DNA of 63,676 bases, counting the filler, from Basidiobolus ranarum (Eukaryota), in NCBI GenBank assembly GCA_040143965.1. It is 22 parts of 22 records of this genome, joined end to end, with 100 filler letters (N's around TTAATTAATTAA, not from the genome) between each part and the next. Parts side by side here need not be neighbours in the genome. Positions count along the whole stretch, not along the records: positions 31,959 to 34,757 come from JASJQH010009847.1; 21 more parts are not named here. One strand, given 5' to 3'. Position 1 is the stretch's first letter. Every line of letters starts with the position of its first letter. Positions 14,544 to 43,217 of this stretch are shown here, in pieces. Made by a program: the position numbers and the translations under genes. The notes beneath the pieces are model-generated. The model did no database searches and had not been told where the DNA came from. It saw only the letters and a list, made by a program, of their open reading frames with translations.

Positions 14544-16049
14544 CCCATCATTGTGAAAAGTTTAAAATCAGATGCAAAGTTGTCCTCGGTGGCCTTTCAA
14601 GTGCATTCTGGTTTATTTACTGGTTTAGATTCTCGAATAGATGCTGCAGTACTAGCAGCGGCAGCAGCAAAGCGAATCAAGCGAAATCAAGAATACCTTT
14701 GGGGTGGTATGGACTATGTGACGTATGCGGCAGTTTTAGATATTTTACTGGTATGTCGCACAATGGACTTACGGATAGAAGGTGATACTCCTAATTTGTG
14801 CAAGTCGATAGATATAGTTCCATTGACTGAATGCGATGGGGCTAGTTTGAAAGCAAATAAAAACAAACCGCGCCCAGCAAAGAAGAATTCGTGGTATGGG
14901 TACATGGCTAAAGTTAGTATGGATTGGCTAGACCGTTTTACAGGAGGTACGGGTACTTGGGCTCATCCGGTAGTAGATGTTGCTGTAATGCCTGTATTAC
15001 TGAGTGTAGGTTTGGTACGAGGATTTAACTTCGGTATCCGAGCTGGAGAAGCGTGGATCGTTGGTACTGCTGTAGATTACTACCGTTTGCTGGCTCGACA
15101 ACCACCAACAGAGGTGAGAAAACTACTGAGAAGAAGTCTAGAGTTATTGACACATGATGGGTCATATTTTGACGAATACGACAGAGTTGGTCTTGACAGG
15201 ATAATAGACCTTGTGTCCAGTTGTGAAGTCAACTGTCATACGGAATGTCTAATTCAAAGCGACGCCAAAGATGTGAGCATGTGGCAACAGGTGGATACTT
15301 GGGATGGTGAATTGTGTCGATTACTTGACTCTGGTACAGGGAGTTTCGGTTATTGGGCATTAAAGGATATCCAGTCAAATATTGGAACCGACTGCAGTTA
15401 CGAAGAGTATGCGATAAGTGTATGCTGTGCATACATACACGATATTATTGACTACAGAGCTGACTCTATGGACGGTGATAAGGTAAATTTAGTGATACAA
15501 TCGACCAATAGAAGTGATGCCGCGGGACTAGCCGAATGCTGTGGGTATATCAAGGCGTATATTGATGATAAGGTGGTGGCTGATAAAGACGGAGTACTGA
15601 TAGGTAAAGTCTGTGTATTAGGGTTCCTGGCATGGAATATGACATGTTTGCGATACGGGGCTCTTGAACGTATCTTTCAGTGTGCGTTGGGAGATAGCAG
15701 GACATATGATAATGTTACCTTGTTACAAGCGGTGAAAATGGAAGCCCAAAACATTTGTGCCGTACAAGATGGGGACGGTGCACAAGAGGGGATTAAAGAT
15801 GCAGCCACTGATTGGCAGGAGATGATATCAAGTAGAACGCAGCGAGCAGCCCATGCATTAGTATGTGAGCGTCTATATATGTGGCCTGATGCCGAGAAGA
15901 AGGGTATGCACAAGTATTGTATGAGCTATTTCGTAACTCTTGGTTTGACAATGCTACGAAATAATTTACTGGAGCTGTGCTGTTCTAAGGAATGCTTTGA
16001 TTTTCATGAAATGGATAAGGAAGTAGCTCGAGTGACAGGTGCATACTAG
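14544..16049 (+). CDS. Uncharacterised protein with class I terpene-synthase-like motifs, 5'-open
   Basis: About 500 codons, intronless, open to the contig edge. RLLDSG (aa 256-261), HDIIDYRAD..DGDKVNLV (aa 296-314), WNMTCLRY (aa 361-368); numbering from the 14553 ORF. Confidence 0.6.
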   Translation, partial: PIIVKSLKSDAKLSSVAFQVHSGLFTGLDSRIDAAVLAAAAAKRIKRNQEYLWGGMDYVTYAAVLDILLVCRTMDLRIEGDTPNLCKSIDIVPLTECDGASLKANKNKPRPAKKNSWYGYMAKVSMDWLDRFTGGTGTWAHPVVDVAVMPVLLSVGLVRGFNFGIRAGEAWIVGTAVDYYRLLARQPPTEVRKLLRRSLELLTHDGSYFDEYDRVGLDRIIDLVSSCEVNCHTECLIQSDAKDVSMWQQVDTWDGELCRLLDSGTGSFGYWALKDIQSNIGTDCSYEEYAISVCCAYIHDIIDYRADSMDGDKVNLVIQSTNRSDAAGLAECCGYIKAYIDDKVVADKDGVLIGKVCVLGFLAWNMTCLRYGALERIFQCALGDSRTYDNVTLLQAVKMEAQNICAVQDGDGAQEGIKDAATDWQEMISSRTQRAAHALVCERLYMWPDAEKKGMHKYCMSYFVTLGLTMLRNNLLELCCSKECFDFHEMDKEVARVTGAY

Positions 16050-20351: not shown

Positions 20352-21651
20352 GGATTTGTATATATTCAAGTGGAATTTTGAAAAGATTTCTGCCTGATAA
20401 GTATTGGCAACATTGGGAGTTGTTTGTCAATATTGTTAATATATTCTTATGGCATCAACTCATATTGGCAGATCTCAGGCAGATACAGCAATTGTGCAAA
20501 GATTTTGTAATTGGATATGTAAAACTTTATTACAGGTTTAAAGAAGATAGACTGAATCTATACCTGTATTCAATACATTCCCTGCTGCATCTTTCACAAT
20601 GCATAGAGATTATAGGCCCTTGTTATACATTCTGGGAGTTCCAAATGGAGTGCACCTGCAGTGAAATGATGCTCCATGTGAAATTGTCAGTATTACTGTA
20701 TGCTAATCTGATTAACAATATATCAGCAAAATCTGTGATGGATGCAATGCAATGGGTTAAGGAGACTCCAGAGTATATTAACCTGCCAACAAAGGGCTTG
20801 TTTCAATGTGCTCTTGGGTTTTTGCATTGTTTGAGCACAATAACAGCAACAAAGCCCAATCCATGGACACAGAGTAAATACCTTTATAATTGGACTAATT
20901 TGCTTGCGTGATGATCTGATGGTATTTTTAGGAAAGCTGCAAGACAGACTTCTTGGTGAGAAAGATCAAGATATGCTGTTTTAGCCATGGGGTAATCTAT
21001 GCAAGCAATGACACATCTTCTTGTGGCAAGACATTTGTTGACTCTAAGTCAGGATTTATTGGCTGAATTCTTTATGGAAATTTGCCAAAATCCAGGAGCT
21101 TATTCTCAATGTGATCAGTAACAAGAGTGAGCTATTTGCCAAGTGTTAGTGCTACTCAAAATTTCAGATGTTGAGCAATTTTTCCATCTTTAGTTTGCTG
21201 GTAAAGCAAGGAATATTGATGTTGTTGAGTAATGTCTAATCAGTCAAGTATGTGCATATGTAGAGACAAAACACAACAAGATTCTTGTATTTTTTGATTC
21301 TCATTATGGCTGCAATACAAAGCCTAAAATATCTAAATAAAGGGATGCATATTAATTCAAATTCCGACAGCAGTAAACCCAAGAATTTTCCATTCCAAAA
21401 TAGTACTTTTTCAAAAATTGCAAGATATTGAATAATGCAAATATTGACAGATTTTGAATGATGCATGCCAAATTTGAGGATCAATGTTTTAACATGTTTG
21501 AATTCCATCAAAATACCATCAAGAAACCACCATCACATCATCAAAATTTGTGGCAGAATGCAAGCCACCAATATTGTGATGGTTCTCTGATGGTATTGCT
21601 ATTTTGGAGGGTGGATCCAATCTGGAACAAATCAATTTTTTTTTGTTACGG
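20352..21651 (+). mobile_element. CACTA/CMC transposase C-terminal part, 3' region and right terminus
   Basis: LP.KY..HW..FV, HSLLHL..CI..IGP...FWEF.ME (Tnp2 C-terminal region); ends TTTTGTTACGG. Confidence 0.85.
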
Positions 21652-30064: not shown

Positions 30065-31511
30065 ATGCTCAATCCCTACAGGAGCCATATCGCTCCACTA
30101 TGGATCTTACTATTATTAGGCATTTTTCAGCTTCCAGCTACAATTGCAATCAAACAAACTTTGGTACGCATACTCTCGTTATTGAAAATCTGTAGCACTT
30201 TATCTTTTAACGAGCAATTTGCCTTTTAGACTCAACTAGATGAATACATGCCCTGTCAAGGAATGTACTCCAAATCCTCTATCCCCAACGGAGCAAACCC
30301 TTATATTTCGTGTAAGTTTTATTAGGTCATCTATTCTTGGTATTTACATCGTTGTTTACCTACTATACTACGCTACTTCATATAGTGACTTTCTCGCCGG
30401 ATTCAACAGGAAAAATATCTTCTTTATTTTTCGAATGGAGTGATTATGAATCCCTAGGTTCGATAGCAGACGATGGAGAAGTATATTAGATATTACTTGC
30501 TCTCAAATAGTACTCCAGCTGATTGAGTTTTTTTTTAGAAAGTCTATGTTTGCGACGAGAAAGCCATTGTATCGAATGCCTGTACGAAAGAACAACTAGG
30601 ATCCTTTATTCGTCCTACAGACAATTCTACCTCCATACAAATAGTAGATATTGAGTTAGGCCCCACGTCAAAAAAGGAAGATTACTCCTTTGAGTACCAA
30701 ATCAATAGAACTGGTTATTATTGCGTCAGCGTGAAAGCAGAATCAGGACACTTCTCCACTGTTGTGGATTGGAGAAATCCTTTTGGTCAACTTGCTTCTT
30801 ACGACTATCCAAAGCTACCGGTATTTTGTGATACTTGATAGTTCTCATAAATATATTTCTAATCTCTTTGGTGACTACTCAAAGCTATACTGTCTCCTTG
30901 CCGTTATTTACTTGCTTATAGGGGTCGCCTGGTCGATTGGAACCTTCCGCTATTGGAATGAGATTTTACCAGTTCAGGTATTGACCTTCAAATATGATTT
31001 GCAACTTATTCCGTACTAACCTTTTCTTTTGAAGAACTATATATCTGGATTGATAGCTGTTATTACTGTTGAGATGTCATTTACTTTTGGGTATTGGGAA
31101 TACTATAACATACATGGAGGAAAATGTAAAAACCCTCATTTATTATCAGAGTATTCATTGTTCTAACCAACATGCAGCAATTTTCCTTTTGATTATGAGT
31201 GTGATCTTCAATGCTGGTCGCGATAGTCTCTCCTTCTTCGTACTTTTGATCGTTTGTCTTGGATATGGTGTTGTTAAGTGAGTACCAGAGTATTTCTTTG
31301 ACGCGATTCTGTATTCCTGATACCGTTCTTCATAGGCCATCTCTTGGAAGAACAATGAGAAAGTGTATTGCACTCAGTATAGCCCATTTTATTTTCGGAT
31401 GCATATATGCATCTAGCTCCGCTTTGAATTCCACCCAGCCCGGTAGTCTTTTAGTTTTATTTTCCTCGTTACCACTCGCACTTGTCTTCACTACGTTTTA
31501 TGTTTGGATAT
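30065..31511 (+). CDS. PTM1/GPR107 (lung seven-TM receptor) family, truncated after the first several TM helices
   Basis: Multi-exon: signal peptide, TGYYCV, WRNPFGQL..YDYPKLP, EILPVQ|NYIS, NAGRDSLSFFVLLIVCLGYGVVK|PSLG. Confidence 0.85.
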
Positions 31512-31858
31512 CCTTTTTGAAAACTCAATTCCAATTTTTTGCTGCGACAGTCTCTTGCCGTGAATTCCTTAACTCGTTTGCACATTCTTCAAGGCTTGAC
31601 CAATACCCAATAATACTTACTCAGCTATATAGAGGAAAATTCAATATGAATGAGCCATTCAAGATAGGATCAAAGTTTGAATCAATTGGGAAAATGCTTG
31701 AAAACGTCAAGATACCATCATATTTTACCAGGACTCCCATCAATATCCACTCATCTAGGTGTTTATTCAAATGCAAAGACTGGAAGTATTGGATTTGTAT
31801 ATATTCAAGTGGAATTTTGAAAAGATTTCTGCCTGATAAGTATTGGCAACATTGGGAG
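31512..31858 (+). mobile_element. CACTA/CMC transposase fragment in frame with the PTM1 exon
   Basis: IPSYFTRTP...FKCKDWKYW...YS..ILKRFLPDKYWQHWE; last 68 nt identical to 20352-20419. Confidence 0.8.
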
Positions 31859-31958: not shown

Positions 31959-32031
31959 CCCATTCTGGTGGCGTCGTCCCTATTACTACCCAGGATATTA
32001 TCCCTACTATCCACCGGAATATTACTATTAG
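31959..32031 (+). CDS. Secreted Arg/Trp/Tyr-rich prepropeptide, type B, 3' fragment
   Basis: Identical to 34374-34446 (PFWWRRPYYYPGYYPYYPPEYYY*). Confidence 0.85.
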
Positions 32032-32948
32032 CCGATCCGTCATTCTAGCTACCCACCAGGATGTTTTCACTAGTTGAACCATATATCACTATATCAATAT
32101 TTGGAATTGATGCGGTATTTAACAGTATCGCATAGTCATATTTGTATACGTGTATCGCAAAGAAGTCAGGCAAGAGTGCCAACTAAATAAACCAAGCAAG
32201 CTATCAACTAATATTCATCTGGGTGTCTATCTATATGATGAAATTTCGGGATTACTCGATTCTATTACTTCAACATAATCTTTGTAGTCATTGTCATTAA
32301 AGTTTAATGATTTTACCGTCAGAAATGCGCAACAATGATTCAATAATCCACTATGCTTAATGTCAGATCAAAACTACCGAATATAAGCTTTCAGCAACAT
32401 GATTTTCGCAGTAATCTTCTTTTCCATTCAATATACTATTGATTTAATGAAGGGTGCCGAGATCATCGGTATCATGATGTTACAAGGGCTTGCCTAGAAA
32501 AGCTACTCTATAGCTTTCAATCCTCCGAAGTGAATCACATTTGATAACATTACCAATTTCTACACAGGGTAATGCCAGCCATTCTCATGTCACTTTCTCA
32601 TTAATTAAAATTTCTCGTACTTATTCAATTGCGTCAGTCGCCATCCATAAGCGACTTTTACTCATTTATTTGAGTTGTTCCTTGCGGATTCAAAGACATG
32701 TCGATCTATAGTCCCACTAGATAGTATACTTCTACTTTAAATTGCCAAGTGCGATTAGTTCTAGTCTTTGACTATTGAATGAACTCTGATCCGATTGACT
32801 TGCTAACAAACAAACACGTACCGTCATCCAAGCCGAGAAAGAAAGTTAAATATAGGTAATTAAATTGGGCTGCTCTTATAAAGACAAGTGGCTCCTCACT
32901 GCCGAAAGAACATCCCAGGCATCGCTGCACTGTTTACCACCTACTGAA

Positions 32949-33236
32949 ATGAAGATTCAATTAGTTCTCTTATCCACTGCTTTCCTTCTTGCGAGTGCTC
33001 TTCCAGCTCAAGAGGCTTCTCCGGACGTAACTTCTTTGGATTCTGGTAATGAAATTGGGGAACTGAACAACATTCAACCTGATGACATTGGTGATATTTC
33101 TGCAGATAACGATGATGAAGAGTCTGACTTGCGACTTCGCAGATGGAGACGCCATAGACGCTTCCACCCATTCTGGTGGCGTCGTCCCTATTACTACCCA
33201 GGATATCCCTACTATCCTCCGGAATATTTCTACTAA
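32949..33236 (+). CDS. Secreted Arg/Trp/Tyr-rich prepropeptide, type A (95 aa)
   Basis: TATAAAA about 70 nt upstream; signal peptide MKIQLVLLSTAFLLASA; acidic spacer; RLRR; WRRHRRFHPFWWRRPYYYPGYPYYPPEYFY. Confidence 0.88.
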   Translation: MKIQLVLLSTAFLLASALPAQEASPDVTSLDSGNEIGELNNIQPDDIGDISADNDDEESDLRLRRWRRHRRFHPFWWRRPYYYPGYPYYPPEYFY

Positions 33237-34155
33237 CCAATCCATCTGCCTGAATGTTTCTTCTATCTCTAACTAAATATAGTGAGATGTATTTGTATTG
33301 CTATGTTTGTATCAAACAAAGTTAGGCAAGAGTGTCAACTGAGTAAAGCTGATAAGATATCCCACTATTTTGATTTGGATTTAATGAGATTTCGTGGTTA
33401 ATAATCTGTTTTAAGAGTCACTTCCCAAAAATTCCGATTTTATTCTTTGACAAGAGGAATAATCATTTCCTACATCAAAATCTTGGCACAGAAGCGGAAG
33501 CCTACCAAAGTATTGCTATCACTTATTCAGTTGATCGTCACATACTAAGTGCGGCGCATTCATTGACCAAGAATGTAACCCCAAACATATTCATTTCTTC
33601 AAGCTCTACAGATCCTGAAACGCTATTGAATAACTCTTAATGTGAACTTAGCAGTATTTTTGACTTCTTGTTTGATTGAGAGCACTACAAATAGGATATA
33701 TGAGCTCAAAGAAGCGTGCTTTGGGCGAGGTCATATCAGTAATAAAGATATCCATCGAATTCTTGAAGGTTTAAAAGATGAAATATTATGTGGGATATAA
33801 TAATAATTTCAATACAAGCCATTTATATATCGATTCTTCACCAGTAAAAGCCTCTGTACATGTTTGATGGCCTAAAGTTAGCTTCAATAAGTAACCTTCA
33901 CTCATTTATCAGACTTGTTCCTGGCTATTTCAATGACTTGTCCTTCCGTATCCATGTCAGACAGTCTCTTTCCATCTCTAATTTTCAAGCATGCCAGCGA
34001 AAAGGTGTGTGCTTAGTTCACATGTATAATTCTCCAGGATGCGAATGGAATTTACGACAAAGACAATTATATTACGTTACTCTTATAAAAGAGAATAACT
34101 GCTTACTTCTGAAAGAACATCCCAGGCATCACTGTACTGTTTACCACCTACTGAA

Positions 34156-34446
34156 ATGAAGATTCAATTAGTTCTCTTATCCACTGCTTTCCTTCTTGCG
34201 AGTGCTCTTCCAGCTCAAGAAGCTTCTCCAGATGCAACTGCTTTGGATTCTGGCAATGACATTGGGGAACTGAACAACATTCAACCTGATGACATTGGTG
34301 ATGATTCCGCGGATAATGATGGTGAAGAGTCTGACTTGCGACTCCGCGGTTGGAGACGCCATAGACGCTTCCACCCATTCTGGTGGCGTCGTCCCTATTA
34401 CTACCCAGGATATTATCCCTACTATCCACCGGAATATTACTATTAG
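34156..34446 (+). CDS. Secreted Arg/Trp/Tyr-rich prepropeptide, type B (96 aa)
   Basis: Paralog of 32949-33236 with the same promoter and signal peptide. Confidence 0.88.
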   Translation: MKIQLVLLSTAFLLASALPAQEASPDATALDSGNDIGELNNIQPDDIGDDSADNDGEESDLRLRGWRRHRRFHPFWWRRPYYYPGYYPYYPPEYYY

Positions 34447-35129
34447 CCGATCCGTCATTCTAGCTACCCACCAGGATGTTTTCACTAGTTGAACCATATA
34501 TCACTATATCAATATTTGGAATTGATGCGGTATTTAACAGTATCGCATAGTCATATTTGTATACGTGTATCGCAAAGAAGTCAGGCAAGAGTGCCAACTA
34601 AATAAACCAAGCAAGATATCAACTAATATTCATCTGGGTGTCTATCTATATTATGAAATTTCGGGATTACTCGATTCTATTACCTCAACATAATATTTGT
34701 AGTCATTGTCATTAAAGTTTAATAATTTTACCGTCAGAAATGCGCAACAATGATTCANNNNNNNNNNNNNNNNNNNNNNNNNNNNNNNNNNNNNNNNNNN
34801 NTTAATTAATTAANNNNNNNNNNNNNNNNNNNNNNNNNNNNNNNNNNNNNNNNNNNNCTACTATATAAGTCACCATATACTCTTAAGAATAAACTAACTA
34901 AAACACACTATCATAAGTTGCTTCTAATACTCAAAGTCTACCCCATTATGTCAAGATCCTCCAACAATTATTATCCAGGTTGGTTTTAAAACTCATTAAC
35001 TCAGTGTTTGAGTTATTGAGAAATTGATTCTCAGCCAAAAGCAAATTCTCTTGATTAGAAGATTTGAGATTTTCGTTGATGCATATATTACTTCTGGAGT
35101 TGATGATTTGATTTATGCCAGCAACTAGG

Positions 35130-36190
35130 AGACAATAGCATTTGTTTTGATATCATAATAGAATATATCTAATTGCCTTCTTGTCTAATTTCCCATGTTA
35201 TGGCTTATGAATATGAGCATATACAGTTAATCAAAATATTATCAGATGATATAGATTAGGCTTGTTTGCAGTCCAAATTTCAATATGAGTTTAGAGTCAT
35301 GGTTGCTATATATTGGACTTCAATTTTGGAGATATACAGCTGTTAAAGTGGCTTCACCCAACAGGTATTAGACAGATCTGAATCAATCAGCATTGTGCAT
35401 GCTTTCTCCACTAAAGTCCTATTCATCCTTTCTGCAACTCCTTTTTGTTCTACACTATCAGAGTAGTAAATTGTTGCTGAATTCCCATTTCTTGACAAAA
35501 GCTAGTCATGGCCTCATTACTAAGTTTAGTTCCATTATCACATTGTAAGTATTTGCTTTTTCTTCCTGTTATGGCTGTGACCATTACTTCATATATCTTG
35601 AACTAAAGAAACACTTCTCCTTTGCTTTAAATAGGATATGAAGCTATGAAGTGAGGTTTATCATCAATAAGGATGAGTAAATTTGTCATTTACTGGGTGT
35701 CCAAGTTTGTATTGGGCCACATAAGTCTATATGAGTAAGATCCAATAAATCTTGGGCTCTGTTAGCTCCTTCTTTTGGAAATGGTTTTCTGCTGATTTTC
35801 CCTTGAATACAGCTTTCACATTTGGTAATATCTGAGGGCTTAAGATCCATTCCTGTACATAGGCTATTTTAGTATAGTAGTTTCACACTATTATAGTTTA
35901 GATAACCCAAGTATTGATGCCTAATCATCAAGTTTCCAGAAGTAATTGGTGCAAAGTTAGATACAGACTCAGTTGTCAGTTGTCAGTGCAATACCCAGGT
36001 GATAGAGATTCCAATTCTTATTCCAGTTGCCACTATCAAGTCTCTTGATTCATAAATTAATGATTTTCCTTAGCTGAATTTAACATCATAATGTTTCTTT
36101 TCAGTTGCTCCAAATGAAATAGATTTGTTGTAAATGATGGAATATATCAGACATCTTGCCAGGTACCCATTACACTTTTGGTTTTACATA
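35130..36190 (-). mobile_element. Decayed Ty1/copia pre-integrase/integrase
   Basis: CESCIQGK..RKPFPKEG.NRAQDLLDL.H.DLCGP; Q.GVAERMNRTLVEKA. Confidence 0.8.
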
Positions 36191-40651: not shown

Positions 40652-41346
40652 TTTTCAAGCTCAAGAAAAGGATCAATATCCTCAATCCAATTCACACGAC
40701 GTTTGGAGCCTGGCCCATCAAACAGTTTACGCCAGTCATTGGCATCTACGGTAACGGTATCGATACCATTGTAAGAATGGCGATAGATTTGGAAACTATT
40801 AGTAGGGCCCAACGCTAGGATCTCCTTGGTATACTCCCCAAACACCATGACCTCCTCTTCGAGTCCCAGAGCTATCATCTTCACATCGTAACCTGACCTC
40901 AATAAACCATCAGCTAAGTACAAATTGGCTTTAAACCCACCGGACGAGACGAAGAGACCGTGAGCCGACTGCATGATAAAAACGCGGAGTTTAGTAGGTT
41001 GTTTTCTAGTAACAGAATCCAAGGATTTAACGGAGACGGAAGGCATATTGAATCGGTGGTTTGTAGTGGGGTTGTTGTAAGAAAACCTTGAGTTGGTTGA
41101 TTTTAGATGTCTTCTACGCTCTTTATTTATATCTTTTTGACCGACAATTGCATCAGATATTGCATCATAGCCCACATAAACCTGGACACTTTGAGTCAGG
41201 ACTTTCTTATAGAATTCATTTGCCACTTTCTCCTTGTTCAACTTCAACAGGTTGAGCTTTTGCTGAGATGCAGCATCACGTTCCGATTCATCGTTTCGGA
41301 GATGGAATTTGTTGATGAATGCATCGAAAATATTGATGTTTCTCAC
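40652..41346 (-). CDS. GT-B (family 4-like) glycosyltransferase N-terminal domain, 3'-truncated
   Basis: LRVFIMQSAHGLFVSSGGFKANLYLADGLLRSGYDVKMI; candidate ATG at 41046. Confidence 0.65.
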
Positions 41347-43217
41347 GTTCTCTCCAAGTATGATGAGATTAGGCTTGATTTTCTAAATTGAATTTTTCTG
41401 AATTATCTGCACCCCAATTTACACTTTGTAGAATACAAGTTTTCACGATTGGATAAATGTAGACGATGCGGATAGTTGCGATGTGAGTTACTCGAAGAAA
41501 GAATCATTGTAAAGATTTCGAATTAAGGGATATTAATGGTAATGGTAGAATTTCTAGTTATATACTTGAAGTCAGATCCTTGCAATCCTCAATCTCGAAG
41601 TTTTCTAGAGTTTCCTTCATCTCCGTTAATTTGGGGATTTGTGAGTAAGCATCAATATAATGTGAAGAGTTTGAAGCATAGTGTGCATGCAAAATATCTT
41701 CAAAATTTAATTGTAAGGCCAGCGTCTAATATGGCCTAAAGCACGCATCACTTAAGAATTTATGAAATATATCTCACATCGTATAAAGGCATTAACTTAT
41801 TCCATACACACTCCGTGTTACCTCACTTCTTAGTTTGAGGGGAACGAAGAGTGGAATCCCTTCAATCCAAGTAAATTAGGTAAACGTAGTATAGTCAAAA
41901 ATTCGAATCTACTCCTTTATTGAAGTTGACATATGCTATGTTACTAGAGATTGAACCATCCATTCTATCTTAAATTTTACAATGGAGACTTCGATTCTCT
42001 TGAATTTGTCTGCTGTGTGTGTCTCAGTAAAAGCAGCTATACCTTATAGTGCTACATTGGTTCATTAGAGTAGCAGGGATAATTTCTTTTTGCGATATAT
42101 CATCATCTACTTAACTCAATACTCAGACTAACTGGGAAGTTCTCAGATTATATGATTTTCTCAAACTTGTCTAAAATACTCCAAACTTTGTGCACATGTT
42201 CCTGGAACCTTCCTGAATATATTCTGCATGTTGGTTTGTATACTTACACACAAGTAGGTTTGTTAAGTAACTCACCAATTCTTCTGGTTCTCCATATCAC
42301 TTCTAACAACTCCCAAAATACTTTAACACTAACATGGTATTATTAGTCCACTGTGTAGTAAACAATGGGCACATACAGGATAGCTTTCTTAGATTTCAAT
42401 TGTAATTGAGAGAATTTGGAGTGCCTGGATAGAGTTCTGATTAGCGAAGTCATTGTAAGTTTGAGAAATATGTATTAGTCAATCACAAGAAAAGGAATAG
42501 CTTTTAGAAGGAAATACTGAAGACTCAATGATTTTACATTAAAAACATGCCCCCCTCCGTCCCCCCTCTCCCCCCGGCCAACCCAAAGGGCCCCCGGGGG
42601 AGTAAAATTTTCTTTGAAGCAAGTCATATTTGTTGGAATACAATAAGAATTTTTCTTTTCATCCTGAATTGCATACCAAGTACTGATGATCAAAGAAACA
42701 GCCATGTTCCCCTACTCCAAGATGATCTCATAAGTGAGGGTTTGCGTATTTAGACTATATAAAAAGCTTCTCATATTGACCTTATGACAGTTGAACTAGG
42801 ATTCATAATATGTCAAGTAACTGGGATATCGCCAGTATCTATGCAGTCAAAGTGGTCATAGATTTACTTCCTCATATTGTAACTCTTTTTTCATACATCC
42901 TGACCAATATTATTGATCGGCATATATTTGTTTAAAAGAATGCGTTTAGCTAAGATATATCAACATATAAAGATTGTATTACCCGTTTTAAGTAAAACAG
43001 CAACAAAATGGAGTAATTCATCAATAAATCAGTGTCCAATTCCTAGTATTTGTGTTCTTATAAAAATACTTTCAGGAGATTCCTAACCGAAAGTAAGCTA
43101 GCAGTATTAGAAGTTATGTTCCCTGTCAAACTCTGTGGATTAGACACTCACAGGCAAATAATAAACTAAAAGAAGTTTTAATGCATCTAGCTAGCCTGGT
43201 GCTTGTCAAGTTATCAC

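Follow-up and report, generated by a model that had tools for sequence, protein, structure and literature searches.

Frog-skin antimicrobial precursors consist of a signal peptide, an acidic spacer, a basic site and one cationic peptide, and are encoded by multigene families. Most of the released peptides form amphipathic helices, and the mature parts are hypervariable, as in arms-race peptide families. According to PMC6017362, antimicrobial peptides are typically 8–50 aa long with a charge of +2 to +9. Trp-rich peptides are defined there by more than 25% Trp, usually within 5–11 residues, and Pro-rich peptides by ∼30% Pro and Pro-Arg-Pro; tritrpticin and indolicidin, in which Arg pairs flank Phe, Pro and Trp, are cathelicidin peptides. 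In fungi, Kex2-processed pro-domain (K2PP) proteins carry a signal peptide and a disordered pro-piece ending in KR, RR or LxxR ahead of a folded effector domain, and LxxR after a disordered pro-piece is described as an extended Kex2 motif and a search rule for fungal pro-domains (PMC8528282). KEPs, among them Ustilago Rep1 and the dikaritin precursors, are secreted proteins with basic sites and aromatic-rich products, and are abundant in Basidiobolus (PMC7329392, PMC6339444, PMC8528282). They contain internal repeats between Kex2 sites (PMC6339444, PMC7329392), and the dikaritin type has DUF3328/UstYa genes nearby. Rep1-type peptides are released by Kex2 and form fibrils on the hyphal surface (PMC8528282).

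Here a window of 63676 nt was analysed, composed of 22 unrelated Basidiobolus ranarum contigs of 2785–2811 nt each, which follow one another by length with N44-TTAATTAATTAA-N44 spacers between them; what lies on the two sides of a spacer is not neighbouring. Two peptide genes, c2 and c3, were found on contig C9847 (window 31959–34757). It is very probable that they are members of a genuine family of genes whose secreted product is processed into a peptide.

The gene copies and their arrangement

The original prediction described two full paralogs and one partial copy. Both full copies were recovered as intact ORFs (Table 1), whereas the partial one turned out to be the 3′ end of a complete gene, c1, because two contigs overlap here: the first 111 nt of C9847 match the end of C6902 with 100% identity. 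A genome search gave six matches to the gene, corresponding to five copies: c1 on C6902, c2 and c3 on C9847, and c4 and c5 on C11678. Copies c1, c2, c3 and c5 are complete, and c4 is 5′-truncated by the contig edge. The protein records K7432_001239 (C6902, 45285 nt) and K7432_017985 (C11678, 1576 nt) are Basidiobolus ranarum hypothetical proteins.

Table 1. Positions of the peptide genes and associated features, counted along the window
Feature	Position	Strand	Basis or remark
Copy c2, 95-aa prepropeptide, single exon	32949..33236	+	intact ORF
Copy c3, 96-aa prepropeptide, single exon	34156..34446	+	intact ORF
3′ end of copy c1	31959..32031	+	whole gene is C6902:42-329(-), 96 aa, K7432_001239
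Predicted signal peptide, residues 1-17	32949..32999	+	hydrophobicity; cleavage position inferred
Acidic, aromatic-free, disordered pro-piece	33000..33128	+	composition, AlphaFold
Candidate kexin site L-R-x-R, residues 61-64	33129..33140	+	kept in 5/5 copies
Predicted long mature peptide of c2, 31 aa	33141..33233	+	+6, 45% aromatic, no Cys
Internal RHRR site of c2	33150-33161	+	cut would leave a 24-mer, +1, 54% aromatic
Predicted long mature peptide of c3, 32 aa, +5	34348-34443	+	sequence
Conserved upstream motif CTCATTTAT	32661..32669, again 33901-33909	+	spacer alignment
TATA-like box, 72 nt before c2 start	32877..32882	+	spacer alignment; conserved AATTAAAT-like island precedes
TATA-like box, 72 nt before c3 start	34084..34089	+	spacer alignment
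Conserved 3′ island	33319..33378; also 32163-32222, 34578-34637, after c4	+	alignment
384-nt stretch, gene 3′ end and downstream DNA	31959..32342	+	98.7% identical to 34374-34757

The simplest order would be c1-c2-c3 with a period of ∼1.2 kb, and the period of c4-c5 was 1171 nt. No contig overlap joining c4-c5 to the c1-c3 array was found in the overlap search of the genome contigs, nor was there a continuation of the end of C9847 among the other contigs of the assembly. The nearly identical 384-nt stretch, which occurs after c1 and again after c3, reads as the trace of a recent conversion or unequal crossover and as an assembly break point. Because of this repeat, and because no contig continues C9847, the array may possibly contain further, collapsed copies beyond the five seen in the genome. 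The DNA past its 3′ side is only partly assembled; C11678 continues into C12783, whose end is a copia gag fragment. The copia-type gag start (DUF4219) is at C12783:1-300 (−), ∼1 kb downstream of c5, and a short tandem duplication lies close to the overlap of C12783 with C11678. Another stretch of the window, 35686–35850 (−), looks like a copia fragment, with no convincing Pfam match.

The substitution pattern indicates that the five copies are under purifying selection. Pooling the 10 pairs of copies, which are not independent, pS was 0.24, pN 0.05 and pN/pS 0.22, and by region the pN/pS of these pooled pairs was 0.03 in the signal, 0.18 in the pro-piece and 0.42 in the mature part. Fisher tests on rounded counts gave p values of 5e-8 (c1-c5) and 0.005 (c2-c3), and substitutions were concentrated at third codon positions in all six pairs of complete copies. 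Antisense ORFs over the genes were rejected, since their starts and lengths vary among copies and the substitutions match the + frame. Between c2 and c3, the differences comprised residues 27, 29, 35, 50, 56 and 65, an inserted Tyr and the aromatic residue in penultimate position; as had been predicted, they lie in the spacer, junction and distal tail.

Identity in the first 255 nt of the coding parts was 87–94%, compared with 54–55% of the aligned columns in three spacers, from which the array appears to be old with homogenised coding parts, probably through gene conversion. In these spacers, CTCATTTAT was found upstream of all four complete copies (with one change in c5), 255–290 nt upstream in c2 and c3, and a block with AATTAAAT-like and TATA-like elements ∼72 nt ahead of the start was kept despite the divergence. 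These islands point, indirectly, to transcription. The conserved island behind the genes is a probable 3′-end or regulatory signal; no unusual RNA fold was detected in the 3′ regions, whose folding was on a par with that of shuffled sequences (z −1.0 to +0.5). In the mostly open-access literature searched, no Basidiobolus transcriptome or proteome paper surfaced. It could be supposed that the copies are a repeated non-coding element or silent duplicates, as protein searches found no homolog in any other organism. The strong synonymous excess, the intact frames in all copies seen, the indel between copies of 3 nt and in frame, and the promoter islands conserved in nearly saturated spacers make this supposition barely tenable.

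Precursor layout and the predicted peptide

The N-terminus of the precursor comprises K2, a hydrophobic 9-mer (mean Kyte-Doolittle 2.5) and A-S-A ahead of L-P. The 44-residue pro-piece (residues 18–61) contains no Cys; across the four complete copies its net charge ranges from −13 to −15. In c2 and c3, residues 19–61 include 14 D/E and no K/R, and the C-terminal 34–35 residues include 8–9 Arg and one Glu; this charge segregation was matched by 0 of 20000 shuffles. AlphaFold predicted a helix at residues 3–16 only and no fold elsewhere, with a mean pLDDT of 54.7 and a pTM of 0.17.

Four basic sites were present in 5/5 copies, namely L-R-x-R (61–64), W-R-R (66–68), R-H-R-R (68–71) and W-W-R-R (76–79). 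The proposed prepropeptide layout was upheld as to the signal-like start, the acidic pro-piece and the kexin-type sites. The best-scoring Kex2 site, RHRR, lies inside the supposed active core. A basic junction is kept in every copy as L-R-x-R and R-H-R-R, whereas the dibasic RR form of it occurs in two of the five only (c1 and c2). RHRR reaches the top possible P4–P1 values in the yeast Kex2 matrix given in PMC2515848, in which L or F at P2 scores zero, as in LRLR and LRFR. It is also described there that acidic or small residues are favoured after cleaved Kex2 sites and basic ones under-represented, and that some high-scoring sites are left uncut. All internal sites of the peptide precede bulky or basic residues, and disfavoured prime-side basic residues may protect some of the internal RR sites. 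Because the LxxR rule (PMC8528282) and the yeast matrix (PMC2515848) favour different sites, two products are plausible. The long form would have 31–32 aa, a charge of +5 to +8, 42–47% aromatic residues, no Cys and 3 Trp in 5/5 copies, and the short form, from a cut at RHRR, 24–25 aa, a charge of +1 to +4, 50–56% aromatic residues, 6–10 Tyr and 2 Trp.

Kexin P-domain matches were found at four places in the genome (two on C6895, one each on C2655 and C6903). The three that were examined all had a subtilase domain, and one matched yeast kexin with an E value of 5e-49. Most fungi are described as having one Kex2 homologue (PMC8528282), and the four places may represent an expansion matching the many peptide precursors of the genus.

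The 20-aa core was originally described as invariant. It is identical in c2 and c3 only (0/60 nt differ, compared with 16/195 nt upstream), and this DNA identity fits gene conversion as well as selection. Once all five genomic copies are compared, the core differs at 5 of its 20 positions (H73R, P80R, Y81H, Y82F, G85R), and the claim did not survive. The complete set of changes after residue 61 consists of L63F, G/R65, H/R73, P80R, Y81H, Y82F, G85R, the Tyr insertion, E93G and F/Y95, which toggle Arg, remove the sole Glu (E93G) or swap aromatics; none adds an acidic residue. What the copies keep is the overall charge and aromatic content and no exact core sequence. All basic residues of the mature part are Arg, with no Lys. 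The helical hydrophobic moment was low (0.17–0.31), and the summed values of the Wimley-White interface scale for the long form were favourable, at −4.6 to −7.3.

Complete cutting at the sites could yield a linear signalling peptide, i.e. a pheromone or density signal. Fungal Kex2 precursors do include mating factors, and B. meristosporus, with 43, is the strain richest in Kex2 precursors in PMC7329392. Such a function is nevertheless quite improbable for a single unit with no repeats and no STE13 dipeptides after its sites, and its co-existing copies tolerate Pro-to-Arg, Tyr-to-His and indel changes, as a receptor ligand would not be expected to. The earlier suggestion that full RR cleavage would give FHPFWW and PYYY... 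was not sustained, as it needs an Arg-Arg-Pro cut in 4/5 copies. Kexins generally avoid cutting before proline (P1′ Pro); a literature search on this avoidance found no supporting paper.

Relatives, described classes and genomic neighbourhood

No relatives were detected outside this genome. A word-based search of 5.8 billion protein clusters scored two of five candidates, both family members, and with the mature region alone both of two candidates were again family members; among longer proteins, 0 of 7999 scored in the word-based search, which is weak evidence. Exhaustive phmmer over 1.84 billion representatives returned only the query itself and a repeat protein of 1422 aa (P0004, 27% over residues 7–54), which was rejected as a compositional match. 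PDB sequences gave 0 matches, Pfam no significant match (best E 0.18, unrelated) and NCBIfam no match for any of the five members. In the ESM Atlas, the best feature score of 0.79, to an oomycete glycine-rich cluster, was below the chance bar and was rejected; there was no usable match for the C-terminal part, and structure rows are meaningless at a pLDDT of 0.36. Only one of 497 pattern matches in metagenomes passed, and this one, to an acidic stretch within an unrelated long protein, was rejected. The prokaryote genomes gave 0/335 matches, and there is thus no sign of bacterial origin. Within the genome, the YPYYP pattern gave 26 matches (control 15), of which 6 were the family and the other 20 lay in no similar precursor; the WWRR pattern was uninformative, with 463 matches compared with 392 in the control. 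No diverged paralog was thus detected in the genome by these searches. These searches, which covered annotated proteins, metagenomes and prokaryote genomes, bear out the prediction of an undescribed family; unannotated orthologs in other Basidiobolus species are possible.

Among described classes, the precursor fits the sequence pattern of the K2PP proteins, with a signal peptide by hydrophobicity, a disordered pro-piece ending in LxxR and a kexin in the genome. It differs from them in that a short, unfolded, Cys-free peptide replaces the folded effector domain, and in its host, a Zoopagomycota gut fungus; its LxxR, at residues 61–64 of 95, also lies past the first half of the protein, which is what the K2PP screen of PMC8528282 searched. 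With the KEPs it shares secretion, basic sites and an aromatic-rich product, but it is neither a KEP nor a dikaritin precursor: it has a single non-repeated unit, dose would come from gene copies instead of internal repeats, the sites are Arg-only and no DUF3328 partner was found. No sequence similarity to Rep1-type repellent peptides was found.

The resemblance of RRFHPFWWRR to tritrpticin and indolicidin, noted originally, is one of composition only, with no PDB or family match. Common to these peptides are the predicted release from an inactive precursor, the lack of Cys, Arg pairs flanking Phe, Pro and Trp, and an extended, non-helical character. The Basidiobolus precursor, on the other hand, is not a cathelicidin, as it has no cathelin domain, its pro-piece being without Cys or a predicted fold; it also has no C-terminal amidation signal and no detectable homology. 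Its peptide is of 31–32 residues with a Tyr/Pro tail and 9–10% Trp instead of >25%. With 3 Trp in 31–32 aa (2 in 24–25 aa), and 5–6 Pro in 31–32 aa and PRP in 0/5 copies, it falls outside the Trp-rich and Pro-rich definitions of PMC6017362. A charge of +2 to +9 with at least two Trp and Arg was found for the long form in 5/5 copies, and three of the five short forms reach +2. Compared with the frog-skin precursors, no sequence similarity was found, and the mature part is conserved (not hypervariable, with a pN/pS of 0.42) and non-helical.

Upstream of the array, the neighbours on C6902 look like housekeeping genes. On this side lie a divergent enoyl-CoA hydratase/isomerase-family gene, a 2OG-Fe(II) oxygenase, Thg1 and a USP7-type protease, together with a C2H2 protein, Cac1, a Rtt109-type acetyltransferase, ATP synthase d and an AMP-binding enzyme; a glycosyltransferase, two sugar transporters and a kinase are also present. 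The neighbouring hydrolase gene recurs on C867, a 9-kb contig that carries no peptide gene.

The original prediction offered candidate RiPP cores as an alternative; short Trp- or Tyr-containing cores would then be excised and cyclised or cross-linked. Basidiobolus does make small cyclic peptides (PMC10964425), and Tyr and Trp-Pro are found in dikaritin-type cores (PMC7329392). However, no DUF3328, tyrosinase or oligopeptidase was matched in 140 frames of at least 65 aa on the 45-kb upstream contig (140 of 145 frames, four overlapping c1 and one spanning two stretches being left out). The precursor lacks repeats, the upstream genes are of the housekeeping kind, and the downstream side contains a copia gag fragment. 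A search of the genome for UstYa/DUF3328 also gave no match, which is a weak negative without a positive control. In the survey of PMC7329392, DUF3328 stands beside 0/185 Zoopagomycota precursors, and PMC10964425 attributes the known Basidiobolus cyclic peptides to NRPS. A RiPP pathway here is unlikely, and the precursor itself is very improbably of that type.

Several other frames were observed. A small Cys-rich frame with a signal-like start, a hydrophobic end and no Pfam match lies ∼5.5 kb from c1 (L010:5824-6339, +) and is a possible GPI-anchored protein, and C6902 also holds an 808-codon open frame with no Pfam match (L014:643-3066, +). A long conserved gene occurs on both C144 and C6917 in nearly identical form, which suggests duplicated genome segments or two haplotypes. 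In the window, an open frame of 501 codons with no Pfam match (14544–16049, +) contains a DIIDYRAD stretch reminiscent of the Asp-rich motif of terpene synthases; a 243-codon open frame (40654–41382, −), also without a Pfam match, has a C-terminal part that gives the impression of the start of a glycosyltransferase-like domain; and the frames at 31250–31858 and 20354–20911, with no convincing Pfam match, share a region around YWQHWE and may be pieces of a single repeated element.

Possible functions of the peptide

The antimicrobial function proposed originally is still the single most likely reading, although the published Trp-rich and Pro-rich definitions do not cover the peptide. We tentatively favour, at somewhat less than even probability, a kexin-released cationic antimicrobial that works by analogy with the Trp/Arg peptides. 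In such a scheme, five or more single-exon genes arranged in tandem would encode the secreted prepropeptide, which the predicted signal peptide would direct into the secretory pathway. The acidic, unstructured pro-piece, which is long enough to neutralise the mature peptide, would neutralise and solubilise the Arg/aromatic-rich C-terminus in transit, and kexin would cut the L-R-x-R junction to leave a Cys-free peptide of 31–32 residues and +5 to +8. Its Arg/Trp half would bind anionic microbial envelopes and its aromatics would partition into the membrane interface; the many near-identical copies would supply dose. By analogy, the peptide may act against competing microbes of the herptile gut or of dung and soil.

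By the general range given in PMC6017362, the long form has the size and charge of an antimicrobial peptide (8–50 aa, +2 to +9), and it combines Arg with two or more Trp. Basidiobolus abundance co-varies with gut bacterial assemblages (PMC10964425). A cut at RHRR would argue against an antimicrobial, since the resulting 24–25-mer would lose most of the charge (+1 to +4). The low Trp percentage, the low helical hydrophobic moment and the lack of hypervariability in the mature part also speak against it, and a network analysis in PMC12400927 suggests that Basidiobolus stabilises rather than suppresses gut bacteria. Literature searches, mostly of open-access papers, found none about a Basidiobolus peptide among those listed, by title and abstract start, and none relevant on cysteine-free fungal Kex2-released antimicrobials beyond candidalysin.

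This peptide of Candida, which is released by Kex2, damages host cells. By analogy, the Arg/Trp peptide might enter or damage animal cells, either of a mite or insect vector, of the amphibian gut or of an accidental mammalian host. Its Arg/Trp content would favour membrane entry (PMC6017362), and Basidiobolus has insect-dispersed, gut-symbiotic and opportunistic-pathogen stages (PMC9391592). We nevertheless consider a host-directed or cell-penetrating effector improbable, because helical amphipathicity is low and protein, Pfam and PDB searches gave no similarity to known effectors. Cationic peptides also normally prefer anionic microbial membranes.

As the main rival reading, somewhat less probable than the antimicrobial one, the same precursor could instead encode a self-assembling surface or adhesive peptide whose acidic solubility tag would be removed by kexin at LxxR and/or RHRR; cutting at RHRR would favour this reading. 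Aromatic stacking and Arg-aromatic contacts might then form a coat on hyphae or spores or the sticky tip of capilliconidia, conceivably resembling the Kex2-released repellent peptides of Ustilago Rep1, for which PMC8528282 provides the precedent. RHRR, the best-scoring Kex2 site, is present in 5/5 copies, its product is 50–56% aromatic with 6–10 Tyr, no fold is predicted (mean pLDDT 54.7, pTM 0.17), and homogenised multi-copy genes suit a bulk product. Basidiobolaceae have capilliconidia with an apical adhesive (PMC13370150, where a sister genus is described and the trait noted as shared), and no hydrophobin was matched in the genome, a weak result in which no positive control rang. However, Tyr is replaced by Phe or His at three positions among the copies, so phenol cross-linking is not needed there, and no oxidase gene was found near the array in the C6902 frame scan. 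The 5–6 Pro in 24–25 residues would argue against a beta-amyloid, the repeat architecture of Rep1 is missing, and nothing ties the genes to conidia. Sequence alone cannot separate this somewhat doubtful surface role from the tentatively preferred antimicrobial one.

In either case, the genes make up an orphan family whose precursor is defined and of which five variants occur naturally. Precursors built in this way are widespread among fungi, and this fungal group has many small secreted proteins specific to single lineages (PMC9391592), so the surprise is limited; the peptide chemistry is unusual, and no described fungal peptide of this chemistry was found in the mostly open-access literature searched. 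If the surface or adhesive role were true, the peptide might make up the sticky material of capilliconidia or act as a coat protein in a genome in which no hydrophobin was found. PMC10964425 describes Basidiobolus as a core member of the herptile gut that is thought to structure its bacteria, and the molecules proposed there are non-ribosomal. If the antimicrobial role holds, which we advance with some reserve, an early-diverging gut fungus may have independently evolved the animal-style combination of an acidic pro-piece with a linear, Cys-free Arg/Trp peptide in a homogenised array, as an antibiotic shaping the gut bacteria of amphibians and reptiles. Because the peptide is short, Cys-free and directly synthesisable, its role in gut bacteria is testable at once.
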